From: Pseudomonadales bacterium | GTDB taxonomy: Bacteria; Patescibacteriota; Microgenomatia; UBA1400; PJMF01 | Assembly: GCA_020632265.1 (NCBI GenBank) | Contig: JACKFW010000001.1 | Coordinates: forward strand, 455-64,454 | Length of the DNA: 64,000 nt | Direction of reading: 5' to 3' | Part shown: one piece after another, positions 12,746-25,705 of the stretch | Numbering within the stretch: position 1 is the stretch's first letter | Layout of the letters: each line of letters begins with the position of its first letter | Made by a program: the position numbers and the translations under genes | Notes under the pieces: model-generated | Told to the model about the DNA's origin: nothing | Databases searched by the model: none | What the model saw: only the letters and a program-made list of their open reading frames with translations

Positions 12746-12842
12746 AAATCATACTACAAATATTACATTCTTTCTAGATGAATTTATTAATTACTTCTTG
12801 GTAAAACCCGAAGATTAAAGTATAATTAAAGTTTGATAAAGT

Positions 12843-12918
12843 GGGCCCGTGGTGTAGTGGTTAACATGTCTCCCTGTCACGGAGAAGATCGTCGGTTCGA
12901 ACCCGATCGGGCTCGCCA
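12843..12918 (+). tRNA. tRNA-Asp (anticodon GUC), CCA encoded
   Basis: Cloverleaf: acceptor GGGCCCG/CGGGCTC, anticodon stem-loop CTCC-CTGTCAC-GGAG, T-arm GTCGG-TTCGAAC-CCGAT, then GCCA. Confidence 0.9.
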
Positions 12919-12929
12919 ATATAAAAAAA

Positions 12930-12954
12930 TAAGCCAAATAAGGCTTATTTTTTT
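12930..12954 (+). terminator. Rho-independent terminator after tRNA-Asp (hairpin taagcc/ggctta plus T-run)
   Basis: aaaaaaataagccaaataaggcttattttttt has an A-run before and a T-run after the hairpin, so it could act on either strand. Confidence 0.55.
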
Positions 12955-12962
12955 ATATTGTT

Positions 12963-13097
12963 GAGTTCAAATTGTAAGCGAAGACTAAATTTGAAAAATT
13001 TAGAGTTCGCGACGGAGAGTGATGAGCGGGAGCGAAGAACCCTCCTAGTGCAAGTGAGCGAGTGAAACGAGCGAATCGTGAACCCGATCGGGCTCGC
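12963..13097 (+). repeat. Island repeat module A, ending in a tRNA-Asp 3'-end copy (aacccgatcgggctcgc)
   Basis: gagttcaaattgtaagcgaag...gagttcgcgacgg...gtgagcgagtgaaacgagcgaatcgtgaacccgatcgggctcgc. Its last 17 nt are identical to the tRNA-Asp 3' end. Confidence 0.65.
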
Positions 13098-13151
13098 AAA
13101 TGTTCGTTTGGATTGATTTACAAAGATATTTTTATGATACTGAGTATTTAA

Positions 13152-13802
13152 TTATTTATTATTAGATCTTCTATGTTCTATAATTTTCTTAAGAAGGTTT
13201 TCTAGTACTGTTATAGTATTTTCATCAAAGTGTTGGTCTCTACTTGCTTTTAGTCTCCAACCCAGTGCTTTATATTCATGTTTTTGGGCATGATATTTAA
13301 CTGTTCCACCATTATTTTCTATTTGTTCAAAAGTAGATTTTTTAATATCTGGATCAACTGAATGAACAAACTCTTCAACCCCTTTTGAGAACCAAAATTC
13401 TTTAATTTTTCCTTTAAACTGAAGTTCATTGAAATTATCAATTCTAGTTAGTATAGTTTCCAGACTATACCCTTCAAATTCTTTAAGAAAGCTAGTAGAA
13501 ACTACTATTGTTTGGTATTGAGCTAAATATACAATTGTCATGCCTTTAGGCAGTTGGTCAAAATCTACTCTAGGAAGAGTTATATCTTTGATTTTATTTC
13601 TTTTTAGTAATTCTTTATAGGCATATTGGATACCATTGCAAAAAATTTCCATTAGGTGCCCAGCCTCTTCAGCATTTCCTTTATAGTTTTCTTTTTTTAA
13701 GTGATTTTCCCAAATTTTAAAAGTACTACTTATTGCCTCACGGAAGGATAAACCATTTTGATGCTTTAATCCTTCAGCTGAATTTTGTAGATCTTCAATC
13801 AT
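13152..13802 (-). CDS. Hypothetical protein (island cargo, no recognisable domain)
   Basis: A 216-aa ORF filling the segment between module A and module B. No motif was recognised. Confidence 0.45.
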   Translation of the reverse strand: MIEDLQNSAEGLKHQNGLSFREAISSTFKIWENHLKKENYKGNAEEAGHLMEIFCNGIQYAYKELLKRNKIKDITLPRVDFDQLPKGMTIVYLAQYQTIVVSTSFLKEFEGYSLETILTRIDNFNELQFKGKIKEFWFSKGVEEFVHSVDPDIKKSTFEQIENNGGTVKYHAQKHEYKALGWRLKASRDQHFDENTITVLENLLKKIIEHRRSNNK

Positions 13803-13861
13803 ATATGGAAATTATATCAAAGTATCTATAATTTTCTTGGCAATCAATTAAACAACAGCAG

Positions 13862-14139
13862 ATGAGTACCCCACATCTTCAGGAGTGAACCAGTTTCCCA
13901 TCACCTCCATAATCTTCTCAAGTGAGTTATAAAGTGGTTCCACCCAATTCTGCTCCAGCTCGCATAAATAAAAATCAGACCAAAATGGTCTGTTTTTTTA
14001 TTTATATGAGTTCAAATTGTTAGCGAAGACTAAATTTGAAAAATTTAGAGTTCGCGACGGGAAGGCTGAGCAATAGCGAAGCCACCCTAGTGCAAGTGAG
14101 CGAGTATCACGAGCGAATCGTGAACCCAATCGGGCTTGC
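13862..14139 (+). repeat. Island repeat module B (full-length ~280 bp copy), ending in a degenerate tRNA-Asp 3'-end copy (aacccaatcgggcttgc)
   Basis: It shares ...catcacctccataatcttctcaagtgag...ggttccacccaattc.gctc.ag...hairpin...gagttcaaattgt.agcgaag...ttcgcgacg...gagcgaatcgtgaaccc.atcggg with module C. Confidence 0.65.
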
Positions 14140-14320
14140 CATAAACTAAAAAGACCTATTTATATTTCTTTTTTAACTTAGTTCATAGTATACTTTTAAG
14201 ACTTTTTATTAACTTACACTACTTTAAATATAATTTGAGATCTAAAAACCTCTAGGTCTTTGGGGAGGTAAAGTAAATAATTTTAACTGGTGGGGTTGAA
14301 TAGGCTCTCTAGCTTATTTA

Positions 14321-14590
14321 TTAGCCACCTTTAATCCCATGTCTTCGTGCCCTCTTAGGTTTTCTACTGTTTTCACCCTCATTTTGCTTTTTACCTTTAT
14401 CCAACTCCTTTTTGGGTTTCTGGTTTAGCTCAGCCGCAAGTTCTTCAAGATATCTTAGTTCTGCATCACATAGTTTGCCAGTACCTCCAATTAAACCATT
14501 GTTTCCAAATAAATCAACGCTACTTTCATTTTCAACACTCAACTCAATATTTTCTTTTAATTTTTCAATTGAATAGTTTTGGAAAATCAT
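14321..14590 (-). CDS. Hypothetical small protein with a basic C-terminus
   Basis: An 89-aa ORF. Its GC content is locally higher than the flanks. No known motif. Confidence 0.35.
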   Translation of the reverse strand: MIFQNYSIEKLKENIELSVENESSVDLFGNNGLIGGTGKLCDAELRYLEELAAELNQKPKKELDKGKKQNEGENSRKPKRARRHGIKGG

Positions 14591-14667
14591 TCAACTAATA
14601 CATAAATGAATAATACAATTACGAGATTTTTTGTGATTTTCTAAGTGATTTTAATAAAAAAATATTT

Positions 14668-14832
14668 TTAGTGATTTTTAATTACTGTTTTTCCTCTTTC
14701 ATGACGAATAATTTTTCCTTGTTCTTTAGCTATTTCAACTTCGCTTTGCGTTTTTCTTTTTGTTTTTTTACCGCGATTATTTCTTTCTTTTCCCATTGAA
14801 TAGTATGAGTTTGCTTCTATAGACTTTGACAT
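14668..14832 (-). CDS. Hypothetical small basic protein (54 aa); a pseudogenised paralog lies at 25382-25504
   Basis: Hand translation gives MSKSIEANSYYSMGKERNNRGKKTKRKTQSEVEIAKEQGKIIRHERGKTVIKNH. It is below the ORF-track length cutoff. A conserved promoter-like module lies upstream at 14838-14889. A homologous sequence elsewhere in the window carries in-frame stops. Confidence 0.35.
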   Translation of the reverse strand: MSKSIEANSYYSMGKERNNRGKKTKRKTQSEVEIAKEQGKIIRHERGKTVIKNH

Positions 14833-15057
14833 AAAAATTATTTACTTTCATTCATCAATTATACAATACTGCAATACCTATTATGTTATATTAGCCCAGG
14901 ATTTATAAACTAATCAAGAAGTATTCTTAATTTATTGCCAAATTTACTCTGGGACTAAACAAAAACCACTGCACCCACTCTCTGGTTCGTTTAAGCACCG
15001 GTTGGCGTCGCCAAATATAAAAAATAACCCTATCGGGTTCATTTTTTATATTTGATG

Positions 15058-15135
15058 AACTAGAGCGGAATTGGGTAGAACCGCTGTATGACTCACTTGA
15101 GAGGGTTGTGGAGGTGATGGATAATTGGTTTACAC
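15058..15135 (-). repeat. Inverted partial copy of the island repeat module (first half)
   Basis: The reverse complement ccatcacctccacaaccctctcaagtgagtcatacagcggttctacccaattccgctctag matches modules B and C. It is preceded (14978-15048) by a degenerate tRNA-Asp 3' half and a hairpin aaccctatcgggtt. Confidence 0.55.
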
Positions 15136-15253
15136 CAGAGGAAGTTGGGTTTGTACCTGCAATTACTTAATTTATTACCCACTTAATTATGGAACTTAAC
15201 GACAAACCCCGTCATTATTACAGCGGGGTTTGCACATTTATTGCTTAGTTTTA

Positions 15254-15979
15254 TTACATTTCTTTGAGTTTCTGTTCCAACTTCCGAGCATATTCAAAAT
15301 CACTCTCATCAAGTCCAAGATCAGACTCGAAGTTTCGCCAATGAGCAGTGAAAGCATCATCTGCCAAAAGAAGCCTGAGTTTTTCCTCATCTTCATTCAG
15401 CATTACCTCTGCGATCGCTCGCAGGGCAACAACTGGCCCAACTTCAATTAACTTCTCGGCCAAATCTTTGGCAGACCACTTTTCAATCATGTTGAGTTGA
15501 TCAGGTGGCCACTGATTAGTCATACTTTTATACGGTTTTTTCATTTGAACCTCCAAATTTTTTAATTTGGAAGCAAAGAAATATAAATCATCTAAAACAT
15601 CATCTGAAACACCTAGTCGAGCTAAATCAGAAAGATATCCTGGCATATTTCCAAACATTAAACATCCTGCCTTAAAAGCTGGAATAATTAAGGCTCTCTT
15701 TGCTGTATCTGAGATGGTTATAATACTTGTAGATTCTTGACCTAGTAATCCTAATTCACCTAATGTCAAACCTGTTTCTTCTGACAATGAAACCCATGCT
15801 GGATAGTTATCAGCTTTTTCAGTAGGGGCATATGACTCAACTTTCTGGTATCTAGCTTGTTTATCCCAAATAGATCTTTGAAAAGTCATTGCAATTCGAA
15901 TATCTTTTTGTGTTTTAGGTATTGGGATTATTTCATAACCCATTTTATTAATTTCGGGTCCTGTAGTTTCTGCAAACAT
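15254..15979 (-). CDS. Hypothetical protein (island cargo, compositionally atypical)
   Basis: 241-aa ORF. Its GC content is noticeably higher than neighbouring genes. No recognisable domain. Confidence 0.45.
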   Translation of the reverse strand: MFAETTGPEINKMGYEIIPIPKTQKDIRIAMTFQRSIWDKQARYQKVESYAPTEKADNYPAWVSLSEETGLTLGELGLLGQESTSIITISDTAKRALIIPAFKAGCLMFGNMPGYLSDLARLGVSDDVLDDLYFFASKLKNLEVQMKKPYKSMTNQWPPDQLNMIEKWSAKDLAEKLIEVGPVVALRAIAEVMLNEDEEKLRLLLADDAFTAHWRNFESDLGLDESDFEYARKLEQKLKEM

Positions 15980-16111
15980 AAAATATTAACTTTCTTCATT
16001 TTAAATACCAGTTTAATTATACCATAGAACTTTGTTCAAATACTTCTTATTGAATTTAGATATTTTACTAATGTTCCATAAACAACTTGGAAATAAATTA
16101 TGCTGATATCG

Positions 16112-16401
16112 GCATATGTCCCACATTTTCTGGTGAAAGCCAATTCCTCATCACCTTCAAAATCTTCTCAAGTGAGGTATGTAATGGTTCCACCCAATTC
16201 CGCTCTAGTTAGTATAAATAAAAAACAAACCAAACGGTCTGATTTTTATTTATATGAGTTCAAATTGTGAGCGAAATTCAGACTCCATTCTGAGGTTCGC
16301 GACGAGCAAGTAGTCGAACGAGAGTGAGAAGCCTACTTAGTGCATGTGAGCCATCCTCTAGAAAATAAATAGTAGCGAATCGTGATCCCGATCGGGTTCG
16401 C
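16112..16401 (+). repeat. Island repeat module C (full-length copy), ending in a degenerate tRNA-Asp 3'-end copy (atcccgatcgggttcgc)
   Basis: It shows module-length similarity to 13862-14139, including the internal hairpin and the gagttcaaattg...ttcgcgacg...agcgaatcgtga core. Confidence 0.65.
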
Positions 16402-16531
16402 AAGTAGTATTTAAATTTGATTTATCTGGATATATTTATAATAATGAAGGTTTTTTTTCAAACTAACAACCCATGAGAACGCAGTCGCCCTAGTATTAGA
16501 GTTGTTACTTACATGTTTGTATTTAATTTTG

Positions 16532-18649
16532 TTAATTAAAGTAAACACTAAGAACTCTTTTTATATTCAATGGATGATTATCAGCTAATTGACCTCTAGA
16601 TTTAAAATGTAAAACCAATGATCTAATTCTATCCTTCAAATTAACACCACTTAAATGATAATAATTATGATTTAAAGTTTCGCATAGTTTAATTAAATCT
16701 GCATCTGTATTTAACTTAGATTCTAAATATGCAATATAGTCATTTTCTGAGAAAACTTCATCTAAAGATAAATTATCATTATTGTCTGATTCTAATTTTA
16801 AAATAGCATTTCTTATTTCATCTATAGATTTATCACTTCGTCTCTCAAATAATCTAACGAGCTCTAAAAATTTCATAGGTAGATTACTTCCAGTTACATC
16901 ATCATATCTTATCCCTAAAATCTGAAACAAAGCTCTTGCTTGAGAATCTGTATTTATTTTTTTTGTAAGAGTCCTATAAATCGATTCTTCACCTTTATCT
17001 TGGAATGCTGGTTCAGAACTTCCACCATTGTGTACTACTCCAAAATCAGATAAATCTATATCTGGTCTTAAAGAATTTATAGCTGAAAGTATTTTATTAA
17101 CTCCTAAATGTCTATTACCATAAGCAACTAATTCTCTAGCTTTACCACTAAGATCAACACCTTCCACATCTTCATAATTTATTCCAGCAAATTGAGATAT
17201 CATTTTAAGCTCAGCTAAGTTAACTCGATCTATAAGAATAGTTATCAACTTTATCGTATCATTATGACGTAACTCTGTTGGCAATCCTTCTATTAATTTT
17301 ATTTTTTCACCTTTATTTTGGAATGCTGGTTCAGAACTTCCACCATTGTGTACTACTCCAAAATCAGATAAATCTATATCTGGTCTTAAAGAATTTATAG
17401 CTGAAAGTATTTTATTAACTCCTAAATGTCTATTACCATAAGCAACTAATTCTCTAGCTTTACCACTAAGATCAACACCTTCCACATCTTCATAATTTAT
17501 TCCAGCAAATTGAGATATCATTTTAAGCTCAGCTAAGTTAACTCGATCTATAAGAATAGTTATCAACTTTATCGTATCATTATGACGTAACTCTGTTGGC
17601 AATCCTTCTATTAATTTTATTTTTTCACCTTTATTTTGGAATGCTGGTTCAGAACTTCCACCATTGTGTACTACTCCAAAATCAGATAAATCTATATCTG
17701 GTCTTAAAGAATTTATAGCTGAAAGTATTTTATTAACTCCTAAATGTCTATTACCATAAGCAACTAAATCTCTAGCTTTACCACTAAGATCAACACCTTC
17801 CACATCTTCATAATTTATTCCAGCAAATTGAGATATCATTTTAAGCTCAGCTAAGTTAACTCGATCTATAAGAATAGTTATCAACTTTATCGTATCATTA
17901 TGACGTAACTCTGTTGGCAATCCTTCTATTAATTTTATTTTTTCACCTTTATTTTGGAATGCTGGTTCAGAACTTCCACCATTGTGTACTACTCCAAAAT
18001 CAGATAAATCTATATCTGGTCTTAAAGAATTTATAGCTGAAAGTATTTTATTAACTCCTAAATGTCTATTACCATAAGCAACTAAATCTCTTTCAACAGG
18101 TTTTGTGTATCCTTTTGTTTGTTCTGTGGTTCTTCCAGATTTTGATCTAAGAAATGGACGCTTTTCAAGTATATATCCCCTTAATTGCTCAATTGAATCT
18201 CTGCGATAAAAATCTTTAATAAGTTCGATAATTTTAACTCTTTGTGTTTCACCTCGAATATTAGCCCAATTTAATCCAAAGTATGAGCAAAGTTCTTGCG
18301 TATCACTTACACTAAAGTTAGATGTTAGCCATTTGGCAACATCCAACATGTCAGAATCCATTAATGCATAGTCTTTCCCAGATGAAATAATCCCAGAGTT
18401 ACTTCGTCTATCTACAATAGCATCAATTAAATTCTGGATAATATTCAAATTTTTACATTTTTTAACTAGTGACTTGGTTCTTTCTTCTTGAATATTACCT
18501 TCTAATTGGCTCCATTCAATATTCAGACTAAAACAAATTGAATCAAGCTCGTCCTCAGTAAACAAATTATTAAGAGCTTGAGTTACTTTTTCATTTCTTG
18601 CTTCTTCATCATTTAGACTTTCTTTGTCAAAATGTTTAAATATTCCCAT
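16532..18649 (-). CDS. Tandem-repeat protein built entirely of ~7 death-like / effector-associated-domain (EAD)-type helical adaptor repeats
   Basis: 705 aa. Four near-identical 106-aa repeats (...LKMISQFAGINYEDVEGVDLSGKARELVAYGNRHLGVNKILSAINSLRPDID...) are flanked by divergent copies of the same pattern at the N- and C-terminus. The pattern is G(I/V)xYEDVxG..LxGKARxLVxYxxRxxxxxKILxAIxxLRPD. It resembles the LCFxLGVDYEDLxG..KxxKARELVxYxxRRGRLxELV....RPD adaptor domain that prefixes effectors in bacterial STAND/conflict systems. No enzymatic domain is evident. Confidence 0.55.
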   Translation of the reverse strand: MGIFKHFDKESLNDEEARNEKVTQALNNLFTEDELDSICFSLNIEWSQLEGNIQEERTKSLVKKCKNLNIIQNLIDAIVDRRSNSGIISSGKDYALMDSDMLDVAKWLTSNFSVSDTQELCSYFGLNWANIRGETQRVKIIELIKDFYRRDSIEQLRGYILEKRPFLRSKSGRTTEQTKGYTKPVERDLVAYGNRHLGVNKILSAINSLRPDIDLSDFGVVHNGGSSEPAFQNKGEKIKLIEGLPTELRHNDTIKLITILIDRVNLAELKMISQFAGINYEDVEGVDLSGKARDLVAYGNRHLGVNKILSAINSLRPDIDLSDFGVVHNGGSSEPAFQNKGEKIKLIEGLPTELRHNDTIKLITILIDRVNLAELKMISQFAGINYEDVEGVDLSGKARELVAYGNRHLGVNKILSAINSLRPDIDLSDFGVVHNGGSSEPAFQNKGEKIKLIEGLPTELRHNDTIKLITILIDRVNLAELKMISQFAGINYEDVEGVDLSGKARELVAYGNRHLGVNKILSAINSLRPDIDLSDFGVVHNGGSSEPAFQDKGEESIYRTLTKKINTDSQARALFQILGIRYDDVTGSNLPMKFLELVRLFERRSDKSIDEIRNAILKLESDNNDNLSLDEVFSENDYIAYLESKLNTDADLIKLCETLNHNYYHLSGVNLKDRIRSLVLHFKSRGQLADNHPLNIKRVLSVYFN
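16988..18092 (-). repeat. Near-perfect 318-bp tandem direct repeats (about 3.5 copies) inside the 705-aa gene
   Basis: The same junction point recurs at 17282, 17600 and 17918 (period 318 bp = 106 codons). Copies differ by only a few nucleotides. Confidence 0.85.
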
Positions 18650-18789
18650 AGTTCCTTTTTATAATGTTATAAATTCAATCTATATTTTTATTTTGTACAG
18701 TACAACATTATCTCACTTAGTATCTTATTTTTACAAGTCTTTGTTTTAACACCACCCATTTTGAGGTGAGAGCAGTGACAATCTAGTCA

Positions 18790-18843
18790 TTATTTACTTT
18801 CTTTCATCAATTATACAACAGTACTTAATACCTATTATGTTAT
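18790..18843 (-). promoter_or_regulatory. Duplicated promoter / 5'-leader module (paralog of 14838-14889), upstream of the 705-aa gene
   Basis: ttatttactttc.ttcatcaattatacaa...aatacctattatgttat occurs at both sites. On the minus strand it reads ...ttgtataattgatgaa.gaaagtaaataatg with a TATAAT-like -10 box. Confidence 0.4.
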
Positions 18844-19158
18844 TGTTATAGGCACATACTGTTCGAAAAACTACTTTGTATAAATTGTATAGGTGATAGA
18901 TAATTTAAAGCAATGTGAGGTTGCCTGTTGTTGTACCAATTAAGATACTCAGTTTGTTTAACATGAATAGCAACCAAATCAAGTTTTTAAGAAAAAACTT
19001 GAGCATCTGGTCAAAGTTTTTTTAATTGCTAGTCTATAATTTATTTTAGGCATAATTAGTCTCGATAAACTACATAAATCAAAATCATAATTATACTATC
19101 TAGATAAATACAAATTTTAACCCCTCACGTTTCACGCAACTTCTGCTATACTTTCCAC

Positions 19159-19998
19159 ATGAAAGCACAAAGTGTTCAACTGATTTCAGTTGACTTATTA
19201 CAAACAAATCCTTTTCAACCTCGAGAAAAAATTCATAAAGAAGATCTTGAAGATTTAGTTAAATCCATAAAAGTTCATGGTGTTTTGGAGCCACTAATTG
19301 TAGCTCATACTCCAGCTGGTTATCAAATAATTGCGGGTGAAAGAAGATGGCGAGCATCTCAACTTGCAAAGCTAAATGAAGTCCCAGTTATCATCAAAGA
19401 AACAACTCCAAAGGGTATGTTGGAGATGGCCATAATCGAAAATTTACAAAGAGTAAATTTAACAGCAATTGAAAGAGCTCAGTCATTCCAAAGATTGCAA
19501 AGAAATTTTGATTTAAGTGTTGGTGAAATCGCCGAAAGGATTGGAAAATCCTCGTCATTTATTAGTAATTCCCTTAAATTATTAAACCTTCCAGACGCCA
19601 TTAAAGATGGAATGCTGGGAAAACAAATTACTGAGGGCCATGCAAGAGCTATTTCGGGTATACAAGACTTAAATGCCATGATCCAGGTTTATAAACAAAT
19701 ACTCAAGGAAAATGCCTCAGTTAGAAGAGCTGAAGAACTAGCAAGATTAGCAAAAAGTAAGATTGGTCAAACTAGGATTTTTAAACCCCACTCAGTCATC
19801 TATCAAATAGATGATAAAAAAATTCAAATTTTTGAGAATAAAATCAAAAGATACTTGGGTACAAAAACCAAACTTAAACTAAAAAGAACTGCAAAGCAAA
19901 CACAAATTAGTTTCATTATCAGGGGGGATCTTGAGGAAACTCAAAAAAGCTTAGAAAAAGTGATGAATATGGTTGATGAGGCTCTAAAAAAATCTTAG
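19159..19998 (+). CDS. parB: ParB/Spo0J family partition protein (ParB N-terminal nuclease-like domain plus HTH)
   Basis: 279 aa. It carries the GERRWRA motif and an HTH region (SVGEIAERIGKSSSFISNSLKLLNL). No parA is adjacent. Confidence 0.8.
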   Translation: MKAQSVQLISVDLLQTNPFQPREKIHKEDLEDLVKSIKVHGVLEPLIVAHTPAGYQIIAGERRWRASQLAKLNEVPVIIKETTPKGMLEMAIIENLQRVNLTAIERAQSFQRLQRNFDLSVGEIAERIGKSSSFISNSLKLLNLPDAIKDGMLGKQITEGHARAISGIQDLNAMIQVYKQILKENASVRRAEELARLAKSKIGQTRIFKPHSVIYQIDDKKIQIFENKIKRYLGTKTKLKLKRTAKQTQISFIIRGDLEETQKSLEKVMNMVDEALKKS

Positions 19999-20570
19999 TA
20001 ACTTACATTTTTAATTGGTCCAATTTTATCCATTGGCCAGTATCTAAAAAATGCCTTCCCAACAATTTCTGAACTACTAACAGGACCCCAAACACGAGAA
20101 TCACTTGAATGAGATCGGTTATCGCCTAAAGCAAAATATTCATTAGGACCAATTGTCACAGTTCGTCCTACGATGAATTTTCCTTCAATAGTTTTATAAT
20201 CCTCAGGAAGATAAGTTTCTTCCAATTTTTCATCATTTAAATAGACATTACCATCATGAACGGCTACCCTATCTCCCGGAACTCCAATCACTCGCTTGAT
20301 AAAGTCACAACCTGTTCCAGTAGGACAACCTGCCTCAGGTGGTGCATGAAAAACAATTACATCACCTCTTTGAGGTTCCCCAGTTCTATAACTTACTTTA
20401 TCTGTTAATACATAATCTCCTGAATCAAAGTTCGGGAACATTGACAACCCATTTACTTGATGAGGTTGCATAAAAAATAAATATACGATTAGGAAAAATG
20501 ACAAGCCAATAACTGTGGTTTCAAGAAGATCCAAAAAAAAACTACTGATAGATTTGATAACTCTATTCAT
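19995..20570 (-). CDS. lepB: Signal peptidase I (S26 family)
   Basis: 191 aa with an N-terminal TM and S26 motifs (GLSMFPNF, GDNRSHSSDSRVWGPV). Confidence 0.85.
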   Translation of the reverse strand: MNRVIKSISSFFLDLLETTVIGLSFFLIVYLFFMQPHQVNGLSMFPNFDSGDYVLTDKVSYRTGEPQRGDVIVFHAPPEAGCPTGTGCDFIKRVIGVPGDRVAVHDGNVYLNDEKLEETYLPEDYKTIEGKFIVGRTVTIGPNEYFALGDNRSHSSDSRVWGPVSSSEIVGKAFFRYWPMDKIGPIKNVSY

Positions 20571-20617
20571 ATAAAGGGATTATGCATTTTCAAGACATTA
20601 GTTTCAAGGACTAAATA

Positions 20618-21868
20618 TTGCCATCAAATTGTAGTAAGATAGAGACTATGGGTTATACAAAAAATACAATATCTGGCTTCAGCTGGCAAACACTTCTAAA
20701 AATTGCTGTGACACTCATAACTCTTGGTAAAATAATGGTAATTGCTAGAATCCTGAATCCTCAAGATTTTGGTTTATTTGCTTTGATTGCTATTGCGTTA
20801 GGTCTTGCGGAAGCCACAACTCAAACAGGAATTAATCTTACAATCCTTCAATCTAAAAAAACTATCGGATATTTTATTAATACCGCTTGGGTAATTGCAA
20901 TCACTAGAGGATTAATTATTGGCATAATCATGGTCGTTATGGGAGTTGGCATGACTCGCTACTATAATGAACCCAGACTAAGCATCTTAATTTCAATCGC
21001 AGCTTTCATTCCAATTATTAAAGGATTTATAAATCCAAGTGTGATATTATTTCAAAAAAACCTAGAGTTTTTGAAAGACAGTGTTTTCAAACTCTCACTC
21101 GTAATTATTGAAGCTTTTTTCGCTATCATACTATCAATTTTTTTTAGAGATGTAATTGCCTTAATATTAGCAATGATTACATCAGCATTCTTTGAGGTTC
21201 TTATTTCATTTTGGATATTCAAAGATAAACCAAAGTTTCAATACATATCAAGTAGATCAAAAGAAATTTTTTCCAACGCAAAAGGTTTGACTGTTTCCGC
21301 TGCTCTGTCATACCTAAATGAAAATATAGATGATTTTTTACTTGGAAAAACTATTGGAACTCATAATCTTGGACTTTATCACAATGCATATAGTTTAGGT
21401 CACAAAGCAAATTATGATTTTGCAAAATCAATCAATCATAGTACATTGCCAATTTTCTCAAAAATAACAGAAGATATAAAAAGATTAAAAAGTGCATTTT
21501 TAAAATCCATGACAGCGACTATTTTAATTGTTTTTTCAGTTTCACTTCCATTACTCATAGCACCAAATTTAATTGTAAATTTTGTTTTAGGACAAAAATG
21601 GCTCTCAATTGTCCCAAGTCTCTATTTGTTTGTTTTTGCTGGGATACTTCAAAGTATTACAATTATTTTTTACACACTTTTTTATGCTAAAAAAAGATAT
21701 ACTGCATTAAATTTTCACCTCTTTTTAACAGTCTTAATTCTGATCATTTTAATTAAATATCTTAGTCCCATATCTGGAATTACTGGTGCTGGCCAAGCCC
21801 TGGTAATTAGTAGATTAATTACTTTGCCTATAATATTTTATGAAACATTCAAAATATTTAATAAATAA
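20618..21868 (+). CDS. Wzx-like oligosaccharide/polysaccharide flippase (MOP superfamily)
   Basis: A 416-aa polytopic membrane protein (~12 TM), first gene of a glycan locus. Confidence 0.65.
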   Translation: MPSNCSKIETMGYTKNTISGFSWQTLLKIAVTLITLGKIMVIARILNPQDFGLFALIAIALGLAEATTQTGINLTILQSKKTIGYFINTAWVIAITRGLIIGIIMVVMGVGMTRYYNEPRLSILISIAAFIPIIKGFINPSVILFQKNLEFLKDSVFKLSLVIIEAFFAIILSIFFRDVIALILAMITSAFFEVLISFWIFKDKPKFQYISSRSKEIFSNAKGLTVSAALSYLNENIDDFLLGKTIGTHNLGLYHNAYSLGHKANYDFAKSINHSTLPIFSKITEDIKRLKSAFLKSMTATILIVFSVSLPLLIAPNLIVNFVLGQKWLSIVPSLYLFVFAGILQSITIIFYTLFYAKKRYTALNFHLFLTVLILIILIKYLSPISGITGAGQALVISRLITLPIIFYETFKIFNK

Positions 21869-21885
21869 TAAATGAATCAAATGAT

Positions 21886-22674
21886 ATGATGAAAGGTCAA
21901 ATTCCAATTACGATAATTATTCTTACAAATAGGAATGACTCTAGGTTTATAAATTCGCTGAAATCCTCTCAAATTGCTAAAGAAGTTCTCATCATTGATA
22001 ATAATAGCAAAAATAATTGGCAAAAACTAAATAAAAAATTTCGCTTTAAATTATTGACTTACTCAGATCAGATAGAAAATTTTGCTAAAGCTAGGAACCT
22101 TGCTCTAAAAAAAGTTGAAACAAATTGGGTAATATTTTTGGATAGCGACGAAACTCTTGGAAATTCAGAGGATCAGTTGAAAGCAAATATTAAGAAAATT
22201 GAAAATATTATTAAAAAAGATTTATTTGATGGTGTTAGTATAATTAGAAAGGATATTTTCTTAAATAAAATGTTAAATTTTGGAGAAGCGGGCAACACAA
22301 AAATAATTAGAATGTTTAAAAAAAATAATGGAAAGTTTGTAAAAAATGTTCATGAGGTGGCCCAGATTGCTGGTAAGGTGGGAGTATCGGATATTTTAAT
22401 TTCACACTTTTCACACACAAACATATCTAGTTTTCAAAAAGATATTCAAATTTATGCATTCATGGCTTCTATAAACGAACAAGCCAATCCTAGACTAAAT
22501 ATATTAAAAATGATTTTTTATCCCATCATTAAATTTTTCCTAAATTATTTTATTAAACTTGGATTTTTAGATGGGTATAGAGGTTTAACATATGCAATCA
22601 TGATGAGTCTACACTCATTTTTTGTAAGAATTTTTTACTTTGAAAAGAAAAATATAAACTCTCATGCGCCATAA
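21886..22674 (+). CDS. Family 2 glycosyltransferase (GT-A fold)
   Basis: 262 aa with a GT2 N-terminal signature (ITIIILTNRNDSRF...IIDNNS...FLDSDE, DxD-like). Confidence 0.7.
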   Translation: MMKGQIPITIIILTNRNDSRFINSLKSSQIAKEVLIIDNNSKNNWQKLNKKFRFKLLTYSDQIENFAKARNLALKKVETNWVIFLDSDETLGNSEDQLKANIKKIENIIKKDLFDGVSIIRKDIFLNKMLNFGEAGNTKIIRMFKKNNGKFVKNVHEVAQIAGKVGVSDILISHFSHTNISSFQKDIQIYAFMASINEQANPRLNILKMIFYPIIKFFLNYFIKLGFLDGYRGLTYAIMMSLHSFFVRIFYFEKKNINSHAP

Positions 22675-23914
22675 ACTAATCAATTTACTACTTTGGATAT
22701 TTATTGGATTAATTTCACTGGGACAATTACAAAGAATTGAATTGTCAGGAATTTTTAATGGTATAAATTTTTATCTTCATGACGTATTTATTCTAGTGTG
22801 GTTGATTGCGTTTTTTTTCAACCATTTCTCAAAAATTTTAGGAGCAATAAAAAATGCCCTCAAATCTTACTCAAATATTATAAACACAAAATATTTTTTT
22901 GAAAAAATGTTTCTATCGACATTAATTGTTGGAATTTTAATTAATATTGTTAAATTTCAAGACTATGTTTCATTATTATATTTACTAAGACTACTAAATT
23001 ACATTGGCTTTGCAATATCATTAAAATATTTGATAAAGATAAAATCAATTACAACAACTAACCTCAGATTTAAATTTTTTAGCTTTGGAATAATGATAAT
23101 GTCACTTGGACTATTACAAATTATTTTCATTAACGATACTAGATTTCTTTCAATTCTTGGATGGGATGATCATTTTCACAGGTTAATTAGTACTATTTTT
23201 GATCCTGGTTTTACCGGAATAATCCTAGTCATTTCACATTTATATTTTTTAACTCTTGATACTTTAGTAAAAAATAAATCCATAAAATTTTTAATATCCT
23301 TCAGTTTTCTACTGGCAATTTCATTAACTTTTTCCAGAGCAACATATCTTGCTCTTATATTAGGATTAATGGGAATACCTATACTTAATAAACTTATTTC
23401 ACATGAAAAAATTAATATTGTCTCTAAAGAAATTATAATGTATATATTTATTTTTATCTTTATGCTAATTTTTATACCAAAGCCAGGTGGAGAAGGAGTA
23501 AATTTAATCAGAACTTCAACGGTTGAGGCTCGAACTTCTATAGCAATTTCTCAAATTTCAAATCTTAGTTTTCAAACACTTTTGGTCGGTAATGGACTAT
23601 TTTCAAAACAAAACAGTCTGGTTTTAAAATCAGTACAAAATAATAATTCAATAATTCCAAGCCATTCCAGAATCCCTGACAATTTATTTATCAATATATT
23701 ACTTTCAACAGGAATAATTGGAGTATTTTGCGCGATTTATTTAATAATTAAATATTTAACATATTTAATAAAAGTTGATTTAATGCTTGCAATAGCCTTT
23801 ATTGTTACACTATTCCATAGCCAATTTAGCAATTCGCTTCTACAACCTTTTGTTTTGCTTCTACTATTGGGTGGAATTGCCACAATAAAAAAGACGATTA
23901 AGATTAAATACTGA
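22664..23914 (+). CDS. O-antigen ligase / Wzy-like polymerase family membrane protein
   Basis: A 416-aa polytopic membrane protein with a large periplasmic loop between late TMs. It follows the flippase and GT2 genes. Confidence 0.5.
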   Translation: MRHKLINLLLWIFIGLISLGQLQRIELSGIFNGINFYLHDVFILVWLIAFFFNHFSKILGAIKNALKSYSNIINTKYFFEKMFLSTLIVGILINIVKFQDYVSLLYLLRLLNYIGFAISLKYLIKIKSITTTNLRFKFFSFGIMIMSLGLLQIIFINDTRFLSILGWDDHFHRLISTIFDPGFTGIILVISHLYFLTLDTLVKNKSIKFLISFSFLLAISLTFSRATYLALILGLMGIPILNKLISHEKINIVSKEIIMYIFIFIFMLIFIPKPGGEGVNLIRTSTVEARTSIAISQISNLSFQTLLVGNGLFSKQNSLVLKSVQNNNSIIPSHSRIPDNLFINILLSTGIIGVFCAIYLIIKYLTYLIKVDLMLAIAFIVTLFHSQFSNSLLQPFVLLLLLGGIATIKKTIKIKY

Positions 23915-23951
23915 TAATGATTAAAAAGTTGGGCTTCTATAAATGTGTAGA

Positions 23952-24764
23952 TTACAATTTAAAATTATAAATTAGATCAATTTTAACAGAATTTTTTGCT
24001 TTATCTTCGGATTTAACCTCAATTTTATTTTCACCCTCTTCTAATCTTAAAGTATGTTCAAAATCACCATCCGAGTTAGGAAATACCACACGTTTATTAA
24101 CATAAATTTTGGTATCAGGATCGGTTTTTCCTTTTAAAGTAATCGATTGATTTGCGCGAGATTCAAAAGTAGTGCCATTTTCAGGCTCGGAAATTTCAAG
24201 TAATGGAGCCTTTGTATCCAAAAGTGTTTCATATTCTCTTGTCAAAATGGATTCATTTTCTGCCTTATCAATGCTATATGCAACAATTGTGTTCTTACCT
24301 TCATCTAATTGAATTCCTAATTCGAAAGATCCATCTTCATTAATTTCAATTGAGTCTTCTTTTTGACCGTTTAATATTAAGACCAATTCACTCTTCGGCT
24401 CACCAAATCCCGAAATTTTAATACTAGCACTACTTGTTGCAGTTGGGGGAGCTGAAATAATTGGCACTTGAGGAGCAATTTCATCTTTTTGTTGAAAAGG
24501 AGTAGAGGAATCAAAAAAGTTACTAGTTAACTTAAAAAATCCAGGAATTATCACAAAAACAAAAGCAATTAAAATTAAAATAGAGAAACCAATGAGTACG
24601 ACAGATTGATTGACTACTTTCTTTTTTTCTCGATTAACTCGCCTGGAAAAGCCTCCCAAAGAAGAAGCTGAATAACTTCGACTATTTGTATATATTGATT
24701 TTGAATTATTTCTTCGTCTGCTTTTTGCCATCATCATGTCAAGTATACATCTAATTCCAAACAC
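23952..24764 (-). CDS. Hypothetical membrane-anchored extracytoplasmic protein (beta-rich, Ig-like)
   Basis: 270 aa with a basic N-terminus plus one TM, then a Thr/Ser/Pro-rich linker and beta-rich repeats. It starts at GTG. Confidence 0.45.
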   Translation of the reverse strand: MFGIRCILDMMMAKSRRRNNSKSIYTNSRSYSASSLGGFSRRVNREKKKVVNQSVVLIGFSILILIAFVFVIIPGFFKLTSNFFDSSTPFQQKDEIAPQVPIISAPPTATSSASIKISGFGEPKSELVLILNGQKEDSIEINEDGSFELGIQLDEGKNTIVAYSIDKAENESILTREYETLLDTKAPLLEISEPENGTTFESRANQSITLKGKTDPDTKIYVNKRVVFPNSDGDFEHTLRLEEGENKIEVKSEDKAKNSVKIDLIYNFKL

Positions 24765-24787
24765 AAATCAACTTTTAAACTTTATTG

Positions 24788-24860
24788 AGCCGAAGGTGGG
24801 AGTCGAACCCACGACCTATGGTTTACGATACCAGTGCTCTACCAACTGAGCTACTTCGGC
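24788..24860 (-). tRNA. tRNA-Thr (anticodon CGU)
   Basis: The reverse complement gives GCCGAAG-TA-GCTC-AGTTGGTA-GAGC-A-CTGGT-ATCGTAA-ACCAT-AGGTC-GTGGG-TTCGACT-CCCAC-CTTCGGC-T, a complete cloverleaf. Confidence 0.85.
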
Positions 24861-24947
24861 ACAAAATGATTTTAATATTACTACAAAATATTTAATTCTT
24901 TCACGAATTTAATAATTATATGCTTGATTCATTATAAACTTGAATGA

Positions 24948-25355
24948 TTATAAACGAGGAAGTAAAAGTTTTGTGTTTGGGAAAATTAAATCAGGATTTT
25001 TACCAATAATTTGATTATTTAATTGATATATTTCCATCCATCTATACGAATCCAAAAGTTCTTGATCTGCAATTTTCCATAATGAATCATTAACTTTCAC
25101 AATATAATAATTAGGCACTGAATTTTGACCAAAGATTTCAAAATTCTTAATTTCATCAACTTGAGTAGAAACTGCTTGATCAGAAATTCGACCTTGAGAA
25201 ATACGTTTATTCATAGAAATAATTAAAATGTTTGTAGCTAATAAGATTACTGATAAAAACCCTACAATAAAAACTAATAAATGAGTTTTTTCTCTGAAAC
25301 CCTTAATAAGTTGTTTAAGATCTATTTCATCCATAAAACATTCTTGGGCGGACAA
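24948..25355 (-). CDS. LysM domain-containing membrane protein
   Basis: 135 aa with an N-terminal TM and a C-terminal LysM domain (YYIVKVNDSLWKIADQ...YQLNNQIIGKNPDLIFPNTKLLLP). Confidence 0.7.
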   Translation of the reverse strand: MSAQECFMDEIDLKQLIKGFREKTHLLVFIVGFLSVILLATNILIISMNKRISQGRISDQAVSTQVDEIKNFEIFGQNSVPNYYIVKVNDSLWKIADQELLDSYRWMEIYQLNNQIIGKNPDLIFPNTKLLLPRL

Positions 25356-25381
25356 TCAAAATTATTTCTTAATATAACAGA

Positions 25382-25504
25382 ATGGCTAAAAATAATCGCG
25401 GTTAAAAAACAAAAAGATAAACGCAATTAGATGCTAATATAGCTAAAAGAGATGTAAAAGTTATTCGTCATGAAGAAGGAAAAACAATAATTAAAGATAA
25501 CTAA
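25382..25504 (+). pseudogene. Degraded paralog of the small basic protein gene (14668-14832), with in-frame stop codons
   Basis: atggctaaaaataatcgcggtTAAaaaacaaaaagataaacgc...gttattcgtcatgaagaaggaaaaacaataattaaagataactaa aligns with the intact copy (…aataatcgcggtAAAaaaacaaaaagaaaaacgc…attattcgtcatgaaagaggaaaaacagtaattaaaaatcactaa). At least two stops are visible. Confidence 0.4.
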
Positions 25505-25705
25505 AAATATTTTTTAGATTAAAATCACTTAAAACATCACAAAAAAATCCTAAAGCAAGACAATATTAAAAAATTTCAAAGCTCCCATTTTGAGATTAAA
25601 TGAAAACATTACTATGCACGAAAAGAGATCGATTGGTAGATAGCTTTGACAATTAAAGGAAAATTTATAGACCCAATTTTTTTAACCATAATATCAAGGT
25701 TTGGA

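Follow-up and report, generated by a model that had tools for sequence, protein, structure and literature searches.

A probable site-specific integration hotspot 3′ of tRNA-Asp in a Candidatus Pacebacteria genome, with small recombinase-less blocks and a long structured arm

The region considered here lies immediately 3′ of a tRNA-Asp gene, at positions 12919-18700 of a 64,000-nucleotide stretch of contig JACKFW010000001.1 (assembly GCA_020632265.1); the whole stretch is hereafter called the window. In this region, three copies of the tRNA 3′ end, each closing a conserved module, are interspersed with small genes, and we regard it as probably a hotspot of site-specific integration and excision, of the accretion type, in a genome of Candidatus (Ca.) Pacebacteria, that is, of the Patescibacteria or candidate phyla radiation (CPR). 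An earlier description drawn from the window's letters, here called the original prediction, had offered two readings, integrative remnants stacked at tRNA-Asp without an integrase, or a novel tRNA-associated repeat system; the first is largely right once the corrections given below are made, and the second is conceivable. Loci of this kind are already known; what is new is the CPR host, the tiny size of the blocks, the lack of a cis-encoded recombinase in the genomes examined, and the long structured arm. Considering that Patescibacteria have tiny genomes with few recognizable mobile elements, and that their route of strain-specific gene gain is poorly known, the locus offers a compact, repeatedly used entry site beside tRNA-Asp, where orphan genes (in relatives, genes of toxin–antitoxin or Abi type) are swapped between strains at single-base precision with no recombinase seen in cis.

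The array is built of units with a constant order, namely a terminator-like hairpin, a module and a core (Table 1). The core is an 18-nt copy of the tRNA 3′ end (GAACCCGATCGGGCTCGC in the window), its identity (GAACCC...) beginning one base before the 17-nt string noticed originally. The pattern AACCCGATCGGGCTCGC matches at 13081-13097 without mismatch and at 14123-14139 and 16385-16401 with two mismatches each, against a mean of 0.03 matches in shuffled sequence, which bears out the claim that three tRNA-end copies exist, each at the end of a conserved GC-rich module. The strings GAGTTCAAATTGTNAGCGAA and AGCGAATCGTGA occur exactly three times each in the 64 kb, all of them here (0.02 and 0.13 expected), and the alignment of the three units contains the conserved blocks TTCGCGACG and TAGTGCA.GTGAGC; in the sequence available, the modules are confined to this locus and are not a dispersed genomic repeat. 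The window modules span 117-128 nt (modules in general about 115-150 nt), have a GC content of 0.47-0.49 and are purine-rich on the + strand. The first hairpin, module A and core A form a unit of about 180 bp without cargo, and orthologous units stand directly after tRNA-Asp in the related loci L011-L016 and L017. Hairpins homologous to 12919-12962 also come after tRNA-Asp in L013, L017 and L024, the stem CAGACC/GGTCTG of hairpins B and C recurs in the tRNA-Asp terminator hairpin of L024, and the 3′ half of module C belongs to the same subtype as the modules of L013 and L017. A degenerate tRNA-Asp 3′ half, suspected from the outset, proves real and more extensive than first described, reaching through CCA into a terminator hairpin (local alignment score 56; 0 of 2000 shuffles as high). 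Independent Logan contigs of SRR12358676 match 12986-14051 and 14031-17029 at 100% identity, and the array is therefore not an assembly artefact.

Table 1. Coordinates, strands and descriptions of the features at and around the tRNA-Asp locus
Feature	Positions	Strand	Description
Sigma-70-like promoter	12798-12826		Ahead of tRNA-Asp
tRNA-Asp(GTC)	12843-12918	+	Intact, CCA encoded (12916-12918); ARAGORN and Rfam
Terminator-like hairpin	12919-12962	+	Directly 3′ of tRNA-Asp; inverted repeat, stem AAGCC/GGCTT then T-run
Module A	12963-13079	+
Core A	13080-13097	+	18/18 identical to tRNA 3′ end
Conserved flank 3′ of core A	13098-13143	+	76% identity repeat; also after core C, more weakly after the L013 core
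216-aa cargo open reading frame (ORF)	13152-13802	-	Orphan
X′ copy B	13848-13961	-	37 stop-free codons and a stop codon, no start codon; abuts hairpin B
Hairpin B	13964-14007	+	Stem CAGACC/GGTCTG
Module B	14008-14121	+
Core B	14122-14139	+	2 mismatches; then CCA and a decayed hairpin-like stretch
89-aa cargo ORF	14321-14590	-	No family match
Inverted-repeat arm, first	14627-14782		157 bp, 84.7% identity to second arm; blastn
54-aa cargo ORF	14668-14832	-	No family match; overlaps first inverted-repeat arm
tRNA-Asp 3′-end relic	14983-15054	+	From GGTTCG, with CCA and terminator hairpin; resembles an attL (left attachment) junction
X′ copy, inverted relative to B and C	15057-15170	+	Directly after relic hairpin; inverted repeat at 15043-15148
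241-aa cargo ORF	15254-15979	-
X′ copy C	16098-16208	-
Hairpin C	16213-16255	+	Inverted repeat
Module C	16256-16383	+
Core C	16384-16401	+	2 mismatches
Conserved flank 3′ of core C	16402-16447	+	Repeat shared with flank of core A
705-aa EAD7-repeat protein gene	16532-18649	-	Five EAD7 matches; adjoins island
rve-type (DDE) transposase C-terminal remnant	18846-18977	-	43-aa ORF; rve_2 E = 3.4e-5, rve_3 E = 2.1e-4
Inverted-repeat arm, second	25390-25546		157 bp, on the + strand, 84.7% identity to first arm; blastn

Orthologous loci from relatives were retrieved via homologues of the neighbouring LemA (Ca. Pacebacteria), and up to about 10 kb of island sequence was obtained beside tRNA-Asp in L011-L017. 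Two species beyond the window genome have hairpin, module and core directly after tRNA-Asp. One, represented by L011-L016 (LemA identity 87%), has an encoded CCA before the hairpin and, deeper in its islands, decayed partial modules between the cargo genes; the other, L017 (85%), has the hairpin with no CCA, and a module enlarged by a 37-nt extra hairpin. In each genome the core is that of the resident tRNA: GAGTCCGATCGGGCTCGC in L011-L016 (including L013) and GAGTCCGATCGAGCTCGC in L017, each the species' own tRNA variant, with core and tRNA varying together in a T-loop change from AAC to AGT and an acceptor-stem change from CGGG to CGAG, the latter in L017. The module is absent from L025/26 (85%), L018 (79%) and L020/21 (77%), where the tRNA end ...CTCGC runs directly into AA, with neither module nor second core, and also from L024 (87%), where CCA and hairpin are present. 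The same ‘AA’ flank is found 3′ of module-borne cores, as expected if the core is the displaced original end of the tRNA. As a separate observation, CCA and terminator hairpin are both encoded at the element-followed tRNA-Asp genes of the window, L013 and L024 (the hairpin only in L017), and the unoccupied genes of L025/26, L018 and L020 lack an encoded CCA.

The sharpest junction comes from L013 and L014, which belong to one species. Their sequences are 100% identical from LemA through tRNA, hairpin and module and only 20-34% identical past the core, the break lying 0-1 nt from where the 18-nt core stops despite about 330 bp of shared sequence. Their cargo beyond it is wholly unlike: L013 carries small ORFs and AbiEii/DUF6922, and L014 carries MFS, PEMT, a 70-aa HTH_17/MerR protein, MauJ and others. 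Compared among relatives, the segment varies, rather than sitting unchanged in the same place.

Cores that in each genome match the end of the resident tRNA, empty sites in relatives, and a strain junction precise to the base together argue that integration here is site-specific and targets the 3′ end of a small-RNA gene. Accretion following integration is suggested by the decayed distal copies, by the attL-like relic, and by the CCA and decayed hairpin after core B, which are expected if a newer element inserts on the tRNA side. Since L013 and L014 have the proximal unit in common while the cargo beyond it differs, at least some of the exchange takes place at the core of the module and not at the tRNA itself. 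At the junction of the two, the invariant 3′ motif of the module and the core make an imperfect palindrome around a 6-nt spacer, GAGCGAATCG-TGAACC-CGATCGGGCTC, whose helices are 95.6% paired, compared with 10-41% when the partners are slid.

From these features we infer the action of a recombinase, with the module as its arm or an accessory site. In such a mechanism, an incoming element would carry at one side a replacement tRNA 3′ end with CCA and terminator hairpin, and at its other side the conserved arm of about 115-150 nt, so that a module would come to lie 5′ of every displaced core; the palindrome around the 6-nt spacer at the module–core junction would then have the layout of a core site for a recombinase. 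The enzyme itself, a tyrosine or serine recombinase, would act in trans or would have been lost. Repeated integration, loss of cargo, exchange at distal cores and ordinary rearrangement, including a 10.6-kb inversion, could leave behind small integrase-less blocks like those of cis-mobilizable elements (CIMEs), and the cargo-less proximal unit of about 180 bp would be the two arms alone. Should the trans-acting recombinase and its arm of about 130 nt be identified, they would provide a marker for flexible islands in CPR metagenomes and a candidate site-specific integration tool for organisms without a genetic system.

Several observations weigh against integration of this kind. The 64-kb window contains no integrase, excisionase or serine recombinase, and no recombinase gene is found in the up to 10 kb or so of island sequence from L011-L017, the nearest thing being the 70-aa protein of L014, whose precomputed Pfam match (HTH_17/MerR) denotes an excisionase-like DNA-binding fold. 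The original prediction had likewise found no integrase, excisionase or transposase within 12919-18700, and this holds, the rve remnant lying just outside. The blocks are very small (1-2.3 kb); the unit nearest the tRNA is entirely devoid of cargo and is conserved between strains; the orientation of a further repeated segment, X′ (described below), relative to its hairpin misfits a simple scheme of attL and attR (right attachment) ends; and the module keeps two hairpins paired while their sequences differ, of which a protein-binding DNA arm would have no need.

This last point leads to readings in which the module acts through its fold. Much exceeding the flanking motifs of known systems in length and in structure, it is represented by five distinct copies that share a closing helix, GUUCA(C)AU:AUGUGAGC, and two hairpins, P1 and P2, fixed in position and differing in sequence. 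The P2 mini-stem, flanked by tandem GA, is GC:GC, AC:GU, GU:AC or GCGC:GCGC depending on the copy. It is conceivable, though in our judgement unlikely, that the module is the gene for a structured RNA of about 135-175 nt read from the + strand, composed of the closing helix, the two hairpins (one of them with tandem GA and K-turn-like) and a 3′ domain that mimics the acceptor and T-arm of tRNA-Asp, which would direct or regulate recombination at tRNA-Asp instead of, or besides, a DNA arm. It might serve as a guide or bridge-like RNA or as a decoy resembling a tRNA, or be a processed 3′ trailer. The constancy of P1 and P2 positions in five modules of different sequence, with mini-stem pairing kept, fits such an RNA, as does the confinement of all differences between modules A and B to P2 and a 5-nt linker; folding of P1 and P2 beats shuffles in most copies (z down to -4.3), the + strand folds better in 4/5 copies owing to G·U pairs (U4·G, U13·G, G14·U, and P1 wobbles in L013 and L017), the 37-nt extra hairpin of L017 has been inserted at a junction, a feature typical of structured RNAs, and one double change preserves the pair at column 110:155 where the tRNA acceptor changes in L017. 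Yet with only five sequences, covariation in the conserved helices falls short of significance (the observed scores are reached by 171/500 and 500/500 shuffles), and repeated GAGCGA-type motifs permit alternative pairings that leave the fold ambiguous. In Rfam 15, with T-box and Y-RNA-like families included, only the tRNA reached threshold and nothing covers the module even at E <= 10, and ARAGORN finds no transfer-messenger RNA; neither strand offers a convincing sigma-70 promoter for the module, which lies downstream of a terminator. Moreover, neither a nuclease nor a recombinase gene adjoins the module, its distal copies have decayed in relatives, and the core with its ‘AA’ flank is the unprocessed genomic tRNA end, as DNA recombination predicts. 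A variant, in which an undescribed structured RNA or a folded single strand programs or gates tRNA-Asp recombination for a recombinase encoded elsewhere, strikes us as quite improbable; if true, integrase-less cassettes of CPR bacteria would be moved by a landing pad specified by RNA or by structure, and not by a protein-only attachment site, and a module acting as RNA would define a new class of recombination-associated RNA. The layout of a scaffold followed by a 3′ target match recalls the ends of guide-RNA-bearing transposons, a resemblance only, and TnpB, IscB and DEDD recombinase are missing from the window, where the sole transposase trace is the unrelated rve remnant.

Two further explanations dispense with a dedicated integrase at the locus. 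In one, which we hold to be improbable, no dedicated recombinase exists at all, the units being duplicated repeats that offer patches of homology for RecA-type exchange with DNA from related strains, so that cassettes are swapped, duplicated, deleted and inverted. The absence of a recombinase gene from this locus in any genome is what it predicts; homologous recombination between repeats does act here, as witnessed by the 10.6-kb inversion between 157-bp inverted repeats; the repeated units, at 130-330 bp, are long enough for homologous exchange; and the module subtypes are mosaic, with long-P1 and short-P1 types each present in both species. Against it stands the position of the breaks. L013 and L014 part 0-1 nt from the end of the core and not anywhere within the roughly 330 bp that they share, and the empty sites lack precisely what would lie between tRNA core and ‘AA’ flank, both being hallmarks of site-specific and not of homologous exchange. 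In the other, the locus would be an integron-like cassette array without its integrase, that is, a cluster of attC sites lacking integron integrase (CALIN), with the units serving as attC-type folded single-strand sites between mostly one-gene cassettes. The co-orientation of the cargo genes, each with a single structured repeat after it on its own strand, and the conserved frame of the unit around a variable centre recall such arrays, but the reading is very improbable: Rfam gives no attC or other match for the units, GTTRRRY / RYYYAAC boxes are by inspection not conserved at unit ends, the units are multi-branched and not single imperfect hairpins, the unit ends are a tRNA-derived core that tracks the tRNA, the cargo genes have promoter-like upstream regions of their own, and no intI is present.

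Simpler identities for the repeats were also set aside. By inspection, the differences between modules are not adenine-specific and no reverse transcriptase is present, unlike the template and variable repeats of a diversity-generating retroelement; likewise by inspection, the module follows a terminator as a group IIC intron does, yet no GUGYG stands at its 5′ end and it is much too short to be the end of such an intron. Nor, again by inspection, is the core a retroviral-type primer-binding site, for it matches the unprocessed gene end with its ‘AA’ flank and not the CCA end.

Site-specific integration with a recombinase in trans or since lost, which we prefer, has parallels among known systems. 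Xer-dependent modules, comprising the integrative mobile elements exploiting Xer (IMEX) and pdif modules, are small recombinase-less cassettes moved by a host tyrosine recombinase, as may be the case here. Xer core sites are built from two imperfect inverted arms, some 11 bp each, on either side of a 6-nt spacer, a plan that the module–core palindrome may resemble, and in cer and psi about 180 bp of accessory sequence lies on one side of the core, in analogy to the module. The present core, however, derives from the T-arm and acceptor stem of a tRNA and is not dif-like, and the copies are direct repeats, whereas pdif modules alternate in site orientation. Closer in layout are the ssrA islands of Dehalococcoides, tandem islands 3′ of one small-RNA gene that are bounded by direct repeats of its 3′ end of about 20 bp (PMC3146451). 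As here, an additional conserved motif stands immediately upstream of each repeat, content is strain-specific, and some units lack integration genes and are read as cis-mobilizable (PMC3146451). Many Dehalococcoides units, however, possess an integration module of six genes, including the serine recombinase DsiB, beside attL, and no genome here showed one; the units there measure several kb to tens of kb, against 0.18-2.3 kb here, their upstream motif measures 15 bp, against a module of 115-150 nt with hairpins, and their target is ssrA, in place of tRNA-Asp in a CPR bacterium.

CIMEs of the ICESt1/ICESt3 type provide a second parallel, in that they lack integrase and transfer genes, keep their attachment sites, and accrete in tandem at the 3′ end of the target gene (PMC5704250). 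There, an incoming element enters an attachment site of the resident one (PMC5704250), and here, similarly, exchange occurs at the core of the module. CIMEs are, further, decayed relatives of known integrative and conjugative elements (ICEs) or integrative and mobilizable elements (IMEs) supplying the integrase, and for the present blocks neither a parent element nor an integrase is known; conjugation, moreover, is not expected in genomes as tiny as these. In the tRNA islands of Prochlorococcus, older elements are pushed deeper by new ones (bioRxiv 10.1101/2020.12.28.424599). These tycheposon islands resemble the present locus in their streamlined host, their position next to tRNA genes, scattered partial tRNA copies and the general lack of an intact element (bioRxiv 10.1101/2020.12.28.424599). 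Tycheposons are defined there by a tyrosine recombinase and replication genes of their own, none of which is seen here, and the text consulted describes no counterpart of the long structured arm.

The order of the three copies in the window calls for a correction. The first inverted-repeat arm overlaps the 54-aa ORF, and the second is a decayed paralogue of the same gene (tblastn 25373-25501). Together they bracket a segment of 10.6 kb (14783-25389) holding the 705-aa gene, parB, lepB, polysaccharide genes, tRNA-Thr and LysM, and in every relative examined the block parB-lepB-...-tRNA-Thr-LysM has the opposite orientation to that in the window; on this arrangement, the second arm would mark the far breakpoint of a 10.6-kb inversion. 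Since the inverted segment includes the tRNA 3′ relic, the 241-aa gene and module C, it is probably only secondarily that these stand in tandem with copies A and B, copy C having probably got there through the inversion between the 157-bp inverted repeats. Before the inversion, relic, 241-aa gene and module C may have formed a separate block beside the 705-aa gene, with attL-like and attR-like ends of its own. Integration at the tRNA-Asp 3′ end thus stands, while three successive nested integrations, as first pictured, are too simple an account.

The 705-aa gene, named in the original prediction as following the delimited segments, is indeed present there, but it is probably not cargo of the tRNA-Asp island. 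In the P0011 genome a 708-aa gene, taken as homologous from its size and position, is divergent from parB in the same arrangement as in the window, and in L025 and L018 parB abuts L27, all of which places the EAD7 gene in a second variable spot. Within this gene, at 16985-18238, three tandem repeats of 318 nt are 99-100% identical and a fourth is diverged, a pattern which, judged from the repeats themselves, indicates that the expansion would be very recent. The rve remnant is placed between this gene and parB.

Upstream of hairpins B and C, two of the units have about 140 bp more in common (13870-14005 vs 16120-16255, 76% identity), in agreement with the earlier description. This shared sequence contains the segment X′, a conserved piece of about 150 nt with a stop-free frame of 36-41 codons (ELE.NWVEPLY.SLE....M.NWFTPE.VG) and no start codon, whose 5′ boundary is identical in four contexts, including another metagenome (L007 392-517). 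The inverted partial copy that had been reported exists, at 15043-15148, but what it repeats is X′ and not the module proper. As for what X′ might be, a profile search of 5.8 billion proteins for a known gene of which it could be a remnant returned only one other 35-aa fragment, that of L007, with the same boundary, and no full-length homologue. It does not appear to be a decayed tRNA, aligning to tRNA-Asp no better than shuffles do (p about 0.5), nor a structured RNA, as compensatory pairs are lacking and no RNA covariation is found. A T-box was likewise rejected: X′ contains GGGUGGAACC, but it is placed after the hairpin and not before it, and it matches no T-box model. In L007, the sequence ahead of the X′ copy (3-302) reads as a putative fragment of an AbiEii-like gene.

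The cargo of the window consists of the predicted ORFs of 216, 89, 54 and 241 aa, all of which are present, as is the 705-aa EAD-repeat gene that adjoins them. Pfam, PHROGs, PADLOC and NCBIfam yield nothing informative on cargo function. Profile searches, which had been suggested for the two largest, left the 216-aa protein an orphan, without a Pfam, PADLOC or NCBIfam family and finding among 5.8 billion proteins only itself and one fragment of 78% identity; in the 241-aa protein, a rare N-terminal domain is joined to a C-terminal part of about 90 aa that is common as stand-alone proteins of about 95 aa, a family of unknown function. The idea that the cargo is atypical in GC content did not survive: the 241-aa gene has a GC content of 0.369 (ORF mean 0.319; z = 1.9), below that of the FtsZ gene, the island as a whole stands at 0.339 against 0.321 for the window, and only the modules stand out. 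Exact scans of genome_contigs, metagenome_contigs and viral_contigs with the module's 5′ motif gave four chance matches in which the rest of the module was absent, two gapped module patterns had no match in viral_contigs, and blastn against plasmids and phages had none either. In the relatives, pairs of DUF6922 and AbiEii, resembling type IV toxin–antitoxin or abortive-infection systems, occur at the same site (L011-L016 8057-8865; L017 8705-9567).

The window has a low GC content (0.32) and a gene content typical of Patescibacteria (pyrG, dnaE, gatCAB, htpX, lemA, parB, lepB and the dcw cluster), and homologues of the neighbouring LemA are annotated as Ca. Pacebacteria, Microgenomates or Patescibacteria. 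The island's 216-aa protein has the same sequence as NCBI H6772_00075, which is encoded on a 1.08-Mb contig, annotated ‘MAG: hypothetical protein’ (MAG, metagenome-assembled genome) and deposited under ‘Pseudomonadales bacterium’. Given the conflict of this label with the gene content and the closest relatives, it looks like a mislabel. A last repeat concerns neither module nor core: a promoter- or 5′ untranslated region-like sequence of about 50 nt with TATAAT is nearly identical at 14837-14889 and 18789-18843, the first copy lying upstream of the 54-aa gene and the second some 140 nt ahead of the 705-aa EAD7 gene.

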